DNA of 5,357 bases from NCBI GenBank assembly GCA_028700115.1, contig JAQVTI010000028.1, forward strand, positions 1 through 5,357, read 5' to 3'. Positions 48-5,314 of the stretch are shown here, one piece after another; positions within the stretch are counted from its first letter, which is position 1; each line of letters begins with the position of its first letter. The notes under the pieces were generated by a model. It was given only the letters and a program-made list of their open reading frames with translations. It searched no databases and had not been told where the DNA came from. The position numbers and the translations under genes are program-made. The stretch is from Candidatus Iainarchaeum sp. GTDB taxonomy: Archaea > Iainarchaeota > Iainarchaeia > Iainarchaeales > CSSED10-239.

Positions 48-150
48 AAGGACTAGAGATTAAGATTAAGTGTTTTCTGTTGTTTTATTTTCTGTAGATG
101 AAACAAAAGGACTAGAGAAAGATTAAGAATTTTCTGTGGTTTTTTATTTT
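48..150. repeat. Two tandem degenerate copies (period 59 nt) of AAGGACTAGAGA..GATTAAG..TTTTCTGTKGTTTT..ATTTT
   Basis: AAGGACTAGAGA is exact at 48-59 and 107-118. It is followed in both copies by GATTAAG and TTTTCTGT(T/G)G plus a T-run (copy 1 48-91, copy 2 107-150), about 80% identical after two small indels. A weaker third copy of the T-rich part lies at 11-27. Confidence 0.7.
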
Positions 151-311
151 GAGAAATAAACTCCCAATAATGTAAATCCAACACCTATTAATCCAATTAT
201 AATTCTATATCCAAATTTTGTGATGACCGTTGAAGGTAAAAATATACAACCAACTATCGCTATAAATCCTAAAAATACTGCAACTGCAGTGCCAGTTAAA
301 TTTTGATCCAT
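144..311 (-). CDS. Small hypothetical membrane protein, 55 aa, two predicted TM helices (absent from the ORF track)
   Basis: Manual minus-strand translation: ATG 311-309, TAA 146-144, giving MDQNLTGTAVAVFLGFIAIVGCIFLPSTVITKFGYRIIIGLIGVGFTLLGVYFSK. A GGAGG (CCTCC at 319-323 on plus) sits 7 nt upstream of the ATG. There are two ~20-aa hydrophobic segments. No family recognised. Confidence 0.6.
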   Translation of the reverse strand: MDQNLTGTAVAVFLGFIAIVGCIFLPSTVITKFGYRIIIGLIGVGFTLLGVYFSK

Positions 312-1284: not shown

Positions 1285-2142
1285 ATGATACACTACTTTC
1301 AATACTTGACACAATTAGATTTAATTAAAAGTATTTTAAATAAAAATAAAGAAAATTCAAGAATTGCAATAATTTTAATGGATAATTGTATAGAATTAGT
1401 GCTTACTAATTATATATCTCAGAATTGTGGAAATGAAATATTACCGTATGATTTTAGTAAAAAGTTAGAAATCGCCAAAATACATAAAATTATAGATGCG
1501 GAAATGCAAAGTGTATTTTTGTTATACCACCATTATCGTAATATATTACAACACACAGGAGACTCTAAATCAGATTATATTTATAATAATTTAGAATTTT
1601 ATTTTAATAAAATTGTAGATACAATAACTAATATAGATAACAAAAGATTTTCTTATGAAATGAGAAATAAAGAATATAAAGCTCTATTTGAAAAATATAA
1701 TTCTAAACCATATACCGACTCTTATAATTACATAAAAGATACTTTTACAAAATTAAAATTCGTTTGTGAGAAATCAGATATACGAAATAACCTTAAAAAT
1801 ATGTTAAAAGAATTAATCGATAGTTGGAACGAACAGAGTAGTATGGCTTATGGAGTCAGCAAATTCCAAAATACGTCTGAATGCCTTGTTTATTGTTTTA
1901 AAAATCATTACAAAAAAGAAAATAAAGACTATATCTCCAAATTCGAGAAATATATTAAAACTGTAGATAAAATTAATTTAGAATTTAACAAAATTGATAC
2001 AACACAGAATAGTTTTTTTAATGACGTGCTACAATTAGAAACAAAAGTTCTATTTTTACTGGATTTAACTTATCCTGCATTTTGTTATATTAATTCTCAA
2101 ATTGATATGCAAATAGATAGGATTAGATTAGGCGAAGATTAA
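1285..2142 (+). CDS. Hypothetical all-helical protein with an N-terminal HEPN-like domain (Rx4H motif RNILQH)
   Basis: 285-aa ORF with ATG and TAA. LYHHYRNILQHTG (R85..H90, nt 1537-1554) matches the HEPN R-[N]-x3-H signature and is preceded by helical segments (IILMDNCIELVLTNYI). No SD-like element. TTATAAAT lies at 1255-1262, about 27 nt upstream. The coding call is solid; the function is tentative. Confidence 0.6.
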   Translation: MIHYFQYLTQLDLIKSILNKNKENSRIAIILMDNCIELVLTNYISQNCGNEILPYDFSKKLEIAKIHKIIDAEMQSVFLLYHHYRNILQHTGDSKSDYIYNNLEFYFNKIVDTITNIDNKRFSYEMRNKEYKALFEKYNSKPYTDSYNYIKDTFTKLKFVCEKSDIRNNLKNMLKELIDSWNEQSSMAYGVSKFQNTSECLVYCFKNHYKKENKDYISKFEKYIKTVDKINLEFNKIDTTQNSFFNDVLQLETKVLFLLDLTYPAFCYINSQIDMQIDRIRLGED

Positions 2143-2199: not shown

Positions 2200-2270
2200 T
2201 TTTGTAAAAACTCAACAATTTATCAAAAATCGCCAATTTTACAAAATTTGAGGGTTTTAAAATAGTTTTG
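2200..2270 (+). repeat. Intergenic direct repeat, copy A (71 nt)
   Basis: TTTTGTAAAAACTCAACAATTTATCAAAAATCGCCAATTTTACAAAATTTGAGGGTTTTAAAATAGTTTTG aligns to 3002-3073 with 6 substitutions and 1 indel (65/72). It contains a perfect 10-bp inverted repeat, TTTTGTAAAA (2200-2209) / TTTTACAAAA (2237-2246). Confidence 0.85.
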
Positions 2271-2353
2271 GAAGAATGATTATTTGGGGATTCTAAACTA
2301 TCTACTAATAATAATAAAAATATATATCAAAAAAACAAAAATGATTTAATAAT

Positions 2354-2995
2354 ATGACCTTAATAAATATTTTAATTTTAGTATTTAGTTTAATTCTGTC
2401 TATATCTTTTGTTCTAGGAATTATTTTTTTACTAATATTTTTATTTATATTATATCCGGTGCTTTTAATAAGATATAATATATTTATTAAAAAGTATATT
2501 AGTAATTATAACCCAAAAGACACCAATATAAATTCTGTTATAATAATTAATCATCTATTTAAAGACAAAAAACACAAAAATAGTATAGTGGATAAATGTA
2601 AATATATTGTTGCTTGGGGAGTTCCAGAACTATTATCTAAATTAAAAAAATACAAAAGAACAATCGCCATATATGAGAATATTTCTAGTAAAACCTTTGA
2701 ACAAATAATGGATAATAAATATATAACAGAAGTTTACATTTTTAGTCATGGTCAAAGATTTGGTGTTGGATTATCAGATAAATTCTATAGGTATAAAAAT
2801 CTATTAAAAATAACCCCCAAAATTAAAAAGAATATAATCTGTCAGTTACATTGTGGTGGGCGGCGAAAGATGAAATCAACAGATATAAGTTTGGAATCAT
2901 TTGCAAAAAAATGTAAAATACACAATAGAGATGTGCTTCTTTTTGAAAATTGTTTTTGGATTTTATTTAAATTTGACAAATTTTATAATAAATAA
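2354..2995 (+). CDS. N-terminally membrane-anchored protein with a caspase/CHAT-like (clan CD) His-Cys dyad layout; function unproven
   Basis: 213-aa ORF. Residues ~3-38 are continuously hydrophobic. The remainder alternates strand and helix: SVIIINHLF, YIVAWG, TIAIYEN, EVYIFSHGQRFGVGLSD (His132, nt 2747-2749) and KNIICQLHCGG (Cys167, nt 2852-2854). Compare the caspase motifs IIINNxNF / SHG / QACxG. Only ~45 aa follow the Cys. Confidence 0.55.
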   Translation: MTLINILILVFSLILSISFVLGIIFLLIFLFILYPVLLIRYNIFIKKYISNYNPKDTNINSVIIINHLFKDKKHKNSIVDKCKYIVAWGVPELLSKLKKYKRTIAIYENISSKTFEQIMDNKYITEVYIFSHGQRFGVGLSDKFYRYKNLLKITPKIKKNIICQLHCGGRRKMKSTDISLESFAKKCKIHNRDVLLFENCFWILFKFDKFYNK

Positions 2996-3001
2996 GCTAG
3001 T

Positions 3002-3073
3002 TTTTGTAAAAACTCAACTTTTTCTCAAAAATCGTCAATTTCACAAAATTTGAGAGGTTTTAAAATTGTTTTG
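3002..3073 (+). repeat. Intergenic direct repeat, copy B (72 nt)
   Basis: TTTTGTAAAAACTCAACTTTTTCTCAAAAATCGTCAATTTCACAAAATTTGAGAGGTTTTAAAATTGTTTTG starts 7 nt after the ORF3 stop and ends 35 nt before the mrr ATG at 3108. Confidence 0.85.
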
Positions 3074-3107
3074 TTGCAGTTATAATATATAATAAAATGT
3101 GATTAAT

Positions 3108-4013
3108 ATGATTCCAGACTTTCAAGAATTAATGCTACCGCTACTTAAATTATTAAGTGATAAAAAAGAACACAATTTCTTAGATTTAATAAATATATTA
3201 AGTGATCAATATAAACTTACAGAAGAAGAAAAAAGTGCAAAGACAAGTGCTGGATTTACAATAATTGATAATAGAGTTGGTTGGGCAAAAACTTATTTAA
3301 AAAAAGCGAAATTATTAGAATATACTAAAAGAGGGTATTCTCAAATTACTGATAGAGGATTAGAAGTACTTTCTAAAAATCTTACGAAAATAGATGTTAA
3401 ATTTTTAGAACAATATGAAGAATTTAAAGAATTTAGATATATAAAAAATACAGATCAACCTCTTTCAACTACAAACATAGCAATCAATGATTCATCTTGC
3501 CAAAGTAAAACTCCTATTGAATTAATGGAAGATGGTTATAATTCAATTAATGCAAATCTAAAGCAAGAGCTATTAGATAAACTAAGAGAATATCCACCTG
3601 CTTTCTTTGAAAAAACAATATTAAAGTTATTAGAAAAAATGGGTTATGGTAAAGGAGAAGTTACTGGTAAATCAGGAGATGGAGGAGTTGATGGTATTAT
3701 TTACCAAGATAAACTAAAACTAGAAAAAATATATTTACAAGCAAAACGTTTTGCAGAAAACAATCCAGTAACTGCACACATGGTTAGAGATTTTGTTGGA
3801 GCATTAGAAGTAAATGGAGTAAATAAAGGAGTTTTCATAACAACTTCTAAATTCCCAAGAGATTCTTTAAGTAACATAAAAAGTCAAAAATCAATAAAAC
3901 TAATAGACGGCTATGAACTAGCAGACTTGATGATAGAGCACAATCTAGGAGTATCTATTGAAAATACATTTGAAATCAAGAAAATAGATTTAGACTTCTT
4001 TGATGAAGAATAA
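3108..4013 (+). CDS. mrr: Mrr-family type IV (modification-dependent) restriction endonuclease: N-terminal winged-helix (Mrr_N-like) plus C-terminal PD-(D/E)xK Mrr_cat domain
   Basis: The track ORF begins at GTG 3099. ATG 3108 (MIPDFQELMLPLLKLL, a typical Mrr N-terminus) has TGTGAT 4 nt upstream. The C-terminal FFEKTILKLLEKMGYG..TGKSGDGGVDGIIYQDKLKLEKIYLQAKRF...VRDFVGAL...KGVFITTSKF...IKLIDGYELADLMIEHNLGV is the canonical Mrr catalytic core (nt ~3678-3746). Confidence 0.9.
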   Translation: MIPDFQELMLPLLKLLSDKKEHNFLDLINILSDQYKLTEEEKSAKTSAGFTIIDNRVGWAKTYLKKAKLLEYTKRGYSQITDRGLEVLSKNLTKIDVKFLEQYEEFKEFRYIKNTDQPLSTTNIAINDSSCQSKTPIELMEDGYNSINANLKQELLDKLREYPPAFFEKTILKLLEKMGYGKGEVTGKSGDGGVDGIIYQDKLKLEKIYLQAKRFAENNPVTAHMVRDFVGALEVNGVNKGVFITTSKFPRDSLSNIKSQKSIKLIDGYELADLMIEHNLGVSIENTFEIKKIDLDFFDEE

Positions 4014-4015
4014 AT

Positions 4016-4525
4016 TTAGAATAAATCTTCCACTTTTAGATTTTTTCTGATTCTTTTAAATTCTGCATCTCCAGCATACATAAATATCAAAAGGAATATA
4101 CTAAGAACTACTAATACAAAAAATAAATAAGTAAGAATAGTAATCCACATATCTAATTTTAAAGTTGTATTAATAAATTCAAATGCTAATGTAAATATAG
4201 GACTTAAAGCTAATGAAATATAAAGAAAAATTAAGGTTTTCTTTTTCAACCAATTATTTTCTGCAGAATAATTACCATATAAATATGCTTTTATTTCTAA
4301 TAATCTTAGATTTAGTTTATTCTTTAGATCATCATCTATATTTCTTAAAGTTATAAAATATTCAAACTGAAATTTATACAATTCTACAATTGTGGGATAA
4401 TCTTTAACATTTGAAAGATTTAATCTAAACATATCATATTTCTGAATAGCCGGCAAAATTTCAGTAGTTAATTTTTCAGAATCATACTTTTGCATTTTTT
4501 CTAAATCATTAAAATTTACATTCAT
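4016..4525 (-). CDS. Hypothetical protein: ~95-aa helical N-terminal domain plus two C-terminal TM helices
   Basis: 169-aa ORF with ATG 4525-4523 and TGTGAT 3 nt upstream. Hydrophobic segments are TLIFLYISLALSPIFTLAFEFI and MWITILTYLFFVLVVLSIFLLIFMY. Its stop (4016-4018) lies 2 nt from the mrr stop (4011-4013). Confidence 0.7.
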   Translation of the reverse strand: MNVNFNDLEKMQKYDSEKLTTEILPAIQKYDMFRLNLSNVKDYPTIVELYKFQFEYFITLRNIDDDLKNKLNLRLLEIKAYLYGNYSAENNWLKKKTLIFLYISLALSPIFTLAFEFINTTLKLDMWITILTYLFFVLVVLSIFLLIFMYAGDAEFKRIRKNLKVEDLF

Positions 4526-4818
4526 TCAATCACAATTTCCTTTTTCCCATCTTTAATCCCATTAAAGATAAGATTATACTCATTTTCACTTAATTCAACC
4601 AAATTTTGATATTTATTATCTTCTTTAAGTAAAGTAAACTTATCTTGTAATTGTTTAGCAATTAATCCTTTTAGAGATAATAATACTGGTTTTAATTTAA
4701 CTTGATAAGGATATTTCTTTTTCCAATTATTAAATTCATCATTAACTAGTTTTTCTGCTTCAAATATTCCAAAGACTATCCCTTGTCCAAAATAAACAAC
4801 AATATCTCCTATAGATAT
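4522..4818 (-). pseudogene. Start-less 98-codon open frame, probably the 3' remnant of a gene (tentatively PUA-like/EVE-like beta-barrel protein)
   Basis: Manual translation: ISIGDIVVYFGQGIVFGIFEAEKLVNDEFNNWKKKYPYQVKLKPVLLSLKGLIAKQLQDKFTLLKEDNKYQNLVELSENEYNLIFNGIKDGKKEIVIE, stop TGA at 4524-4522. An in-frame TAA (4821-4819) lies immediately upstream. There is no in-frame ATG, and the only in-frame GTG/TTG codons are a few to ~30 codons before the stop. No N-terminal continuation exists in any frame further upstream. ATGA overlap with the next gene. Confidence 0.45.
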
Positions 4819-5241: not shown

Positions 5242-5314
5242 AAGACTTGGAAGAAATATTCTGTGGTTTAAAGAAAATGATTAAGATGAAAAGAAAGATG
5301 TTTTTGTTGTTTTT
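5242..5314. repeat. Copies related to the 5'-end repeat family
   Basis: AAGACTTGGAAGAAATATTCTGTGGTTT (5242-5269) resembles AAGGACTAGAGA..AATTTTCTGTGGTTT (107-142), and the 11-mer TTCTGTGGTTT is exact at 132-142 and 5259-5269. GATTAAGAT...GTTTTTGTTGTTTTT (5279-5314) resembles GATTAAGATTAAGTGTTTTCTGTTGTTTT (64-87). Confidence 0.5.

Follow-up and report, generated by a model that had tools for sequence, protein, structure and literature searches.

A predicted membrane-anchored, minimal caspase-fold protein encoded beside a type IV restriction gene in Candidatus Iainarchaeum

What kind of protein is encoded by a small archaeal gene with a hydrophobic N-terminus that sits directly upstream of a restriction endonuclease, and what might it do there? 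The question is raised by a 5,357-nt stretch of DNA (hereafter the window; G+C content 23.7%) from Candidatus Iainarchaeum sp., which we take to be a DPANN archaeon of the phylum Iainarchaeota known, according to GenBank, from a metagenome-assembled genome. A first-pass annotation, made from the nucleotide sequence alone, had read the gene at positions 2354–2995 as a membrane-tethered, caspase-like protein with His132 and Cys167 as its catalytic residues. The analysis described here bears out this reading in its main lines: the fold and the dyad are very probably caspase-like, and the protein belongs to a family that existing domain libraries do not recognize.

Gene, fold and candidate active site

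The gene is complete and spans positions 2354..2995 of the forward strand, stop codon included, encoding 213 amino acids. The ATG at 2354 is the first possible start, as an in-frame stop is found at 2342, four codons upstream. When the window was shuffled 500 times with its dinucleotides preserved, no open reading frame (ORF) of at least 213 amino acids arose (longest ORF: mean 67, maximum 136 amino acids), which at 23.7% G+C argues that the ORF is not random. The closest homologue (P0002, 204 amino acids) aligns to residues 3–213 with 50% identity (E = 9e-46), and since homologues cover this whole range, including the hydrophobic N-terminus, we take the full ORF to be the gene. The layout proposed at first pass, a hydrophobic N-terminus (residues 3–39) followed by an α/β domain, was found as described; so were the motifs SVIIINHLF (residues 61–69), EVYIFSHGQRFGVGLSD with His132, and KNIICQLHCGG with Cys167, the 35-residue spacing between His132 and Cys167, and a short tail, 46 residues long, after Cys167.

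The public annotation holds a shorter product. In GenBank, the coding sequence PHR26_03485 (P0001, 135 amino acids) corresponds to window positions 2588–2995 and starts at an internal GTG (Val79; 2588..2590, forward strand); it lacks the membrane anchor and strand b1 and is 78 residues short. Judging from the open frame and its homologues, this start is almost certainly a mis-call, the true start being the ATG at 2354. That the annotated 135-residue soluble protein is the true product, with the upstream hydrophobic part left untranslated, agrees with the GenBank annotation of the contig, yet it is a very remote prospect: homologues align from residue 3, N-terminal hydrophobic segments are present in most of the 60 full-length relatives (a simple scan detected none in six of them), the shorter form would lose strand b1, which the predicted fold needs, and the 78 additional codons stay open in DNA of 24% G+C. 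The public gene record needs correction, as the 78 N-terminal residues are absent from it.

An AlphaFold2 model built with a 24-sequence family alignment had a mean predicted local distance difference test score (pLDDT) of 93.3 and a predicted template modelling score of 0.88; a single-sequence model (pLDDT 52) was set aside. Downstream of an N-terminal helix (residues 3–48), the model describes a minimal caspase-fold domain, residues 58–213 (2525..2992, forward strand), a delineation that also draws on Foldseek, hhalign and hmmsearch. In order, the predicted elements are strand b1 (61–65), two helices (78–86 and 90–99), b2 (104–108), a helix (112–120) and b3 (126–130), followed by His132; then come a hairpin (137–146, with strands 137–139 and 144–146), a helix (147–152), b4 (159–164), b5 (184–188) and a last helix (196–212). 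His132 thus lies two residues past strand 126–130, and Cys167 three residues past strand 159–164. The proposal that the domain was ‘p20-only’ holds insofar as most of the p10 part is absent, but strand 184–188 and helix 196–212 still follow the cysteine. From the order of the elements, rather than from a residue-level structural alignment, these two would be the equivalents of caspase β5 and α4.

Searching the PDB with this model, Foldseek returned 177 matches at E up to 1e-3, and the best 50 of the 177 were all caspases (E = 5e-6 to 8.5e-5, probability 1.00). Among these best 50, coral caspase-3 (6wi4_A, E = 5e-6) ranked first, followed by caspase-7, -8, -3, -11 and insect caspase-1. The template modelling scores of the same 50 matches were just 0.33–0.43, with a query that includes the 48-residue membrane helix and a domain far shorter than a caspase; we read them as a clear fold assignment for the model, not as a tight superposition. 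Viral caspase-domain proteins were also among the matches in BFVD, a library of viral structures. Sequence evidence agrees independently, as the family profile, when run against 177,635 PDB sequences, again gave coral caspase-3 (6wi4_A, E = 0.0072) as its best match. Similarly, hhalign aligned the family with five animal caspases, whose sequences were entered by hand, at a probability of 51% (P = 1.5e-4). This alignment pairs b1 with the caspase “IIINN” strand, His132-Gly133 with “SHG”, Lys159 with the second Lys of “KPK”, Gln164 with the Gln of “QAC”, and, across a one-residue gap, Cys167 with the catalytic Cys. Both the structural search suggested at first pass and the comparisons with the family profile led to caspases, and profile searches assigned no other family; the spacing of ~70 residues noted from the first strand to the His is within the caspase range, as is the His-to-Cys spacing of 35. 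Three other folds were considered and rejected. A weak Pfam match to PIN_2 (E = 0.21) and a weak PDB match to HAD-hydrolases (E = 0.024–0.1) cover only the generic, Rossmann-like b1–b3 part, and the fold search lends support to neither, while a sortase, likewise membrane-anchored and with a His followed by a Cys, is a β-barrel and the predicted fold is α/β.

The candidate active site was assessed in an alignment of 60 full-length members with a mean identity of ~25–30%. The predicted catalytic His132, just past strand b3 (His132-Gly133 at 2747..2752, His codon 2747–2749, forward strand), and the predicted nucleophile Cys167, which closes the b4 segment from Lys159 (K-N-I-I-C-Q-L-H-C at 2828..2854, Cys codon 2852–2854, forward strand), are each kept in 60/60 sequences, as the first-pass annotation had asked to be verified. 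Their neighbours are nearly as constant: Gly133, Gln164 and Lys159 are each found in 59/60 (with Arg in place of Lys159 in the remaining one), Tyr147 in 58/60 and His166 in 57/60. At position 131, Gly is present in 54/60 and Ser in five, making the “FSHG” of the window a variant of a family-wide “FGHG”. The family signatures can be written as [YF]-I-F-G-H-G-x-[RK]-x-G and K-K-x-F-I-A-Q-L-H-C-N. The Cys motif had been likened to the caspase QACxG; its Gln and Cys do align, but the consensus, Q-[L/F]-H-C-[N/G], has one residue more between them. Spacing from His to Cys is 32–38 residues across the family and 50 in one subfamily, and 40–76 residues follow the Cys in relatives. Invariance of both residues at so low a mean identity argues for catalysis, and the two side chains are expected, from the alignment to caspases, to be adjacent in space.

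Where does such a protein belong? Its predicted α/β fold, with a mostly parallel central sheet like that of caspases, and its family-conserved order of His-Gly past b3 and Cys past b4 both agree with clan CD. At the level of known families, the correspondence ends. Pfam Peptidase_C14 (PF00656) did not match the window protein, and among 24 members its best E was 0.058, in one member; CHAT (PF12770) was not matched either (best E = 0.034, in 1/24 members). In place of the C14 p10 part, in which b5, b6 and two helices complete a six-stranded sheet, one strand and one long helix follow Cys167, and the QACxG pentapeptide is replaced by Q-[L/F]-H-C-[N/G]. Because the C14 and CHAT models fail and most of p10 is absent, we file the protein in a new minimal caspase-fold family rather than in C14. 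The original caspase-fold reading is supported by these data, and none of the tests run in order to refute it did so.

The membrane anchor comprises residues 3–39 (2360..2470, forward strand), as one long helix or as two transmembrane helices, according to hydropathy and to the AlphaFold2 helix 3–48, whose pLDDT is above 90. Past the hydrophobic stretch come R40, K46 and K47, and no charge precedes it. Relatives have one to three N-terminal hydrophobic segments: in members whose only helix is short and lies right at the N-terminus, Lys+Arg number on average 0.1 ahead of the helix and 3.7 within the 15 residues that follow, and the N-termini of two-helix members are basic. As the positive-inside rule fits both the single- and the two-helix layouts, the catalytic domain is predicted to face the cytoplasm. 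With 37 residues, the hydrophobic stretch exceeds the length of a signal peptide and may form a helical hairpin.

Family, neighbourhoods and possible role

The family is small and largely invisible to existing resources. When 1.84 billion cluster representatives were searched exhaustively with HMMER (E up to 1e-3), 27 proteins were found, two of which were set aside, namely the window's own shortened product and P0003, an 864-residue repetitive protein (E = 5.7e-24) rejected as a low-complexity false match, leaving ~25 relatives. A search with the full-length alignment was swamped by the low-complexity membrane segment (four matches), and the domain-only alignment used instead yielded ~30–36 further family members, while a word-indexed search with the single protein recovered only the window's own shortened product. 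Apart from a few fragments, members are 170–305 amino acids long and, where named at all, are called “hypothetical”. No family for the window protein exists in Pfam, NCBIfam, PADLOC or PHROGs, and its relatives carry no precomputed Pfam domain; even at E up to 1, the only match of PADLOC-DB v2 in the window is to the neighbouring Mrr, with the caspase-like protein unmatched. Since Pfam, NCBIfam and PADLOC do not detect the family, surveys of caspases and of defence systems overlook it.

The named hosts are Methanosarcinales, Methanoregula, Methanolinea and three Nanoarchaeota genomes, as well as one 3.8-kb contig binned as Bacteroidetes. The distribution is patchy, across Iainarchaeota, Nanoarchaeota and three methanogen lineages, and sequence comparison places the window protein firmly within this small, unannotated, mainly archaeal family. 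No family member was found among IMG/VR viral contigs, the GenBank phages of INPHARED or the plasmids of PLSDB, and reading the ends of the 5,745-bp contig JAQUYT010000054.1 of assembly GCA_028691725.1, in which the window corresponds to bases 247–5603, revealed no evident terminal overlap of the kind that signals a circular element.

We compared 15 independent genomic contexts and, by all-against-all BLASTP, the neighbours in 18 loci. Restriction genes are next to or around the family member in seven of the 15 contexts. In the window, the neighbour is mrr, a type IV restriction endonuclease gene (3099..4013, forward strand; Pfam Mrr_N 1.3e-26 and Mrr_cat 3.3e-31, PADLOC mREase_IV 1.4e-60) that begins 103 nt past the caspase-like gene and provides a defence context rather than a demonstrated partner. 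The P0002 group (L002) has a MjaI endonuclease and an N6/N4 methylase, with SIR2 and a Schlafen-type helicase nearby. In Methanoregula (L023), the gene is within a type I hsdM-hsdS...hsdR locus that also carries a CBASS pair (SMODS+Cap15), a DSPc phosphatase and UPF0175; L029 has a similar type I arrangement plus Fic and TIR genes. Elsewhere, the gene starts 16 nt past hsdM (L030), has hsdR one gene away (L031) or adjoins an Eco57I-type enzyme (L025). Other settings include a casposon-like locus with Cas1 and a family B polymerase (L026), an archaeal phage-type integrase followed by a PIN protein (L020), a group of HATPase, Cdc6, SNF2-NOV_C and HD genes (L024), nucleotidyltransferase pairs (L014) and an HTH_17/DUF6573 island (L008–L013); a sole lineage (L027/L028) is found among housekeeping genes. 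The neighbour comparison across the 18 loci gave no conserved partner gene: between otherwise unrelated loci only restriction subunits recur, and the DSPc phosphatase/UPF0175 pair is common to the two related loci L023 and L029. Members of the family are thus stand-alone accessory genes favouring restriction loci and mobile islands.

Two of these settings deserve a description of their own. In the Nanoarchaeota genome of L026 (8501–15077), the member is beside HNH, Cas1 and family B DNA polymerase genes, and in a second Nanoarchaeota locus (L021, 8852–9406), a fragment similar to the L026 polymerase adjoins a family member. The subfamily with the 50-residue His-to-Cys spacing occupies L023 (5604–8513) and L029 (7481–8816), the latter a related metagenome locus to the Methanoregula one. 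In both, its gene starts 1–2 nt past the DSPc gene and is followed by the antitoxin-like UPF0175 gene, and this three-gene group lies between hsdS and hsdR of the type I system.

What would such a protein do? We propose a small integral-membrane cysteine protease of the caspase-hemoglobinase fold (clan CD), whose N-terminal anchor would hold a catalytic domain of ~150 residues at the cytoplasmic face of the membrane. His132, past b3 and followed by Gly, and Cys167, past b4 in Q-L-H-C, would form the catalytic dyad as they do in caspases. The domain would keep the caspase core through b5 and one helix, the rest of p10 being gone, including the dimerizing strand; because this strand is absent, activation by proximity would need the membrane helices or another partner, through which any pairing or clustering might take place. 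When triggered, the protease would cut host or viral proteins at the membrane, as in abortive infection. These parts are not equally secure. That the protein is an active cysteine protease we consider likely, given its invariant dyad. A role as an effector in conflict or defence, suggested by analogy from its recurrence in restriction loci and mobile islands and from the precedent of defence genes embedded in such loci, is plausible and tentative. For the package as a whole, a membrane-anchored caspase-fold protease acting as a conflict or defence effector, we lean slightly in favour. Rather unlikely is the boldest version, in which no smaller natural family of caspase-fold enzymes would so far have been seen (~150 residues, five strands and a p10 of one strand and one helix) and the protein, self-contained and encoded by a single gene, would act from the membrane of archaea (DPANN symbionts and methanogens) as an effector of abortive infection or against mobile elements, carried in restriction-modification loci.

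Proximity to restriction genes could also be accounted for by a regulatory protease of the neighbouring restriction system, cutting restriction subunits, in restriction alleviation or for safe establishment after transfer, rather than viral or host proteins. Proteolytic alleviation has a precedent in E. coli, where ClpXP acts on HsdR, and the association of the family with several restriction types (type I in four loci, and types II, IIG and IV) fits this idea, as does the 16-nt distance from hsdM in L030. However, the adjoining enzymes are mutually unrelated and would hardly offer one common substrate; the gene is also found without restriction genes, beside an integrase, in the casposon-like locus and among housekeeping genes; the membrane anchor is left unexplained; and the presence of CBASS SMODS+Cap15, TIR and Fic in the same type I loci suggests that these are general landing sites for defence genes. 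We regard such a regulator as a minor possibility. The tether, which sets the domain beside membrane proteins, would suit a protease of processing or quality control at the membrane that takes no part in conflict, for example one trimming the cytoplasmic tails of membrane proteins; the lineage among housekeeping genes (L027/L028) and the lack of PADLOC and PHROG matches agree with it. But a distribution as patchy as 27 clusters (two of them set aside) among 1.84 billion representatives, together with variable, island-like neighbourhoods typical of accessory genes, argues for an accessory gene rather than a core proteostasis gene, and we give this explanation little weight.

The remaining alternatives concern the chemistry. 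Clan CD includes transamidases and ligases, such as GPI8 and legumain when it acts as a ligase, and a caspase scaffold could in principle host transpeptidation, ligation, removal of a protein modifier or acyl transfer. A near-invariant His166 (57/60) next to the Cys, the conserved Lys159 (59/60) and the near absence of p10-derived substrate loops can be read in this way; nothing points positively to a particular alternative reaction, though, and Lys159 and Gln164 are conserved in ordinary caspases too, leaving a slim chance for other Cys/His chemistry. Barely credible is a catalytically dead scaffold, or else a degenerate α/β-hydrolase with FSHGQ as its nucleophile elbow, which the first-pass annotation had kept as a weaker alternative. 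The domain is indeed very small, with most of p10 absent, and FSHGQ superficially resembles an elbow. A dead scaffold is hard to reconcile with His132 and Cys167 being kept in 60/60 sequences at ~25–30% mean identity. As for the hydrolase, the Ser nucleophile of G-x-S-x-G is not conserved, Ser131 giving way to Gly in 54/60 members, and the best 50 of the 177 Foldseek matches are caspases, not hydrolases.

Flanking element and other features of the window

Two copies of a ~75-nt element, detected in a repeat search, flank the caspase-like gene on the forward strand. Copy 1 (2200..2275) is 58 nt past the stop of ORF 1285–2142 and ~80 nt before the ATG at 2354. Copy 2 (3002..3077) lies 6 nt past the stop of the caspase-like gene and ~20–30 nt before the start of mrr, and holds a TATA-like TTTTAAAAT. 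The two window copies are ~88–90% identical, with one indel, and the consensus is TTTTTTGTAAAAACTCAACTTTTTCTCAAAAATCGTCAATTTCACAAAATTTGAGAGGTTTAAAATTGTTTTGTTGCAG. In L002–L007, the element is again found 5–6 nt past the stop of the closest homologue, and its sequences in the window and in L002 share ~90% identity, against only 50% for the adjoining proteins. BLASTN located copies at 5496–5571 and 2913–2972 in L002, 720–795 in L007, 248–323 in L035 and, on the reverse strand, 2923–2983 in L036 and 3509–3569 in L037; among these settings are one past the SIR2 gene in L002 and one before the MjaI-like genes in L035, whereas the copies in L036 and L037 stand alone.

Ahead of the start codons of mrr and MjaI, at a distance of 45–57 nt, the element holds a TATA-like TTTAAAAT. 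It is not simply a promoter, because the gene that comes next is convergent both in L007 and past the SIR2 gene in L002. On both strands, predicted folding is no better than that of shuffled sequence (z from -0.6 to +0.1), the consensus fold has eight pairs at -3.8 kcal/mol without covariation, and there is no Rfam match. An integron attC site was considered and rejected, as there is no hairpin signal and, by reading the sequence, no GTTRRRY at the 3′ end. The element may be a promoter-operator module common to defence genes or a site of recombination at cassette ends, or else a terminator or a small RNA.

Upstream of the caspase-like gene, ORFs 333–1184 and 1285–2142 (forward strand) encode products of 283 and 285 amino acids, for which nothing significant was found in Pfam, NCBIfam, PADLOC or PHROGs and which are unlike the neighbours of homologues; these two, the caspase-like gene and mrr follow one another on the same strand, four genes in all. 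On the reverse strand, 4525–4818 is a 98-codon open frame in which no ATG, GTG or TTG occurs until near the end. Its TGA overlaps the ATG (ATGA) of a gene for a 169-residue membrane protein (ORF 4016–4525, reverse strand). GenBank does not annotate this frame, and neither Pfam nor PHROGs matched it. Either it is what is left of a decayed gene, or it is a gene whose start codon is unusual.

Noncoding repeats lie near both ends of the window. A ~30-nt motif, AGATTAAGATTAAGTGTTTTCTGTTGTTTT, occurs in three noncoding copies (57–86, 114–143 and 5284–5313) that are 73–83% identical, two of them forming a 57-nt tandem just downstream of a small membrane-protein gene (144–311, reverse strand). Over more than 500 nt, the segment 4820–5357 lacks ORFs of at least 40 amino acids in both directions, as well as any tRNA or Rfam match, an unusually long noncoding stretch for a small archaeal genome.

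Comparison with known systems

Caspases are the closest matches in predicted structure, and the comparison with C14A members (caspase-3, -7 and -8; best match 6wi4) shows both what is kept and what is gone. The predicted order of elements is alike throughout, from b1, helices, b2, a helix and b3-His-Gly to the hairpin, a helix, Lys-b4-Gln-x-Cys, b5 and a helix, and the four caspase-invariant residues (His, the Lys of KPK, Gln and Cys) are present in the window protein. By contrast, the matched caspase chains have ~230–250 residues and the window domain ~150; the last caspase helix and the dimerizing strand b6 have no counterpart here, and there is no recognizable inter-subunit linker. The caspase QACxG corresponds to Q-x-H-C-N, in a family that is archaeal and N-terminally anchored. 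If the protein is active, the family would define the minimal catalytic core of the caspase fold; it would also bring in a partner-free architecture tethered to the membrane and, for archaea and the genome-reduced DPANN among them, a concrete candidate for defence by a protease. Were the abortive-infection reading true, caspase immunity of the cell-death type would exist in archaea in a stripped-down form, and the family would offer a minimal model of a caspase active site without p10 loops or a dimer interface.

Caspase-like proteases are effectors of bacterial immunity, for instance in gasdermin activation, as CRISPR-associated CHAT proteases (Craspase/Csx29) and as proteases triggered by TIR proteins. 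To our knowledge, archaeal examples of caspase-like immunity are scarce, and every enzyme studied has the full p20+p10 domain. The immunity proteases of prokaryotes (Craspase/Csx29, gasdermin-activating and TIR/Thoeris-type) resemble the window family in being of clan CD type, encoded in defence islands and equipped with a similar GHG-type His motif. They are, however, large, soluble and coupled to a sensor or substrate gene (a CRISPR effector, a gasdermin or TIR), whereas the window family has no conserved partner, no CHAT match above threshold and no PADLOC match.

The genomic habit of the family also has parallels. Repeatedly, genes that lie inside type I restriction or Hma loci have been recognized as defence systems, such as PrrC, TgvAB and HEC (PMC11411939; bioRxiv 10.1101/2024.01.29.577857), and the members by hsdM, hsdS or hsdR in L023, L029, L030 and L031 are placed in the same manner. 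The known embedded systems are nucleases, ATPases and anticodon nucleases, none of them a membrane-anchored caspase-fold protein, and these two sources mention no caspase-like or membrane protein of the window type. A literature search, with most subscription journals outside its coverage, turned up neither the family itself nor a caspase-fold domain as short as this one, nor any caspase-like gene embedded in archaeal restriction loci.

The nearest architectural parallel is bacterial. N-terminal transmembrane helices on metacaspase homologues were catalogued in 2012 as single-domain architectures in 46 sequences; the catalogued metacaspases and orthocaspases are mostly bacterial, with only five archaeal genomes, all Euryarchaeota, and the helices may be signal peptides (PMC3501461). 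In these proteins, too, a caspase-homologue domain lies C-terminal to a hydrophobic helix and keeps the His/Cys dyad. Unlike them, the window family is invisible to the Peptidase_C14-type model by which they are detected, has a domain about half the size of their full-size one, and carries an anchor predicted to leave that domain in the cytoplasm. The novelty suggested at first pass for so small a membrane-anchored form is therefore to be narrowed: membrane anchoring of caspase homologues as such is not new, being known from bacteria, and the new features are how small the protein is, that its family stands apart and that it is set in archaeal restriction loci.

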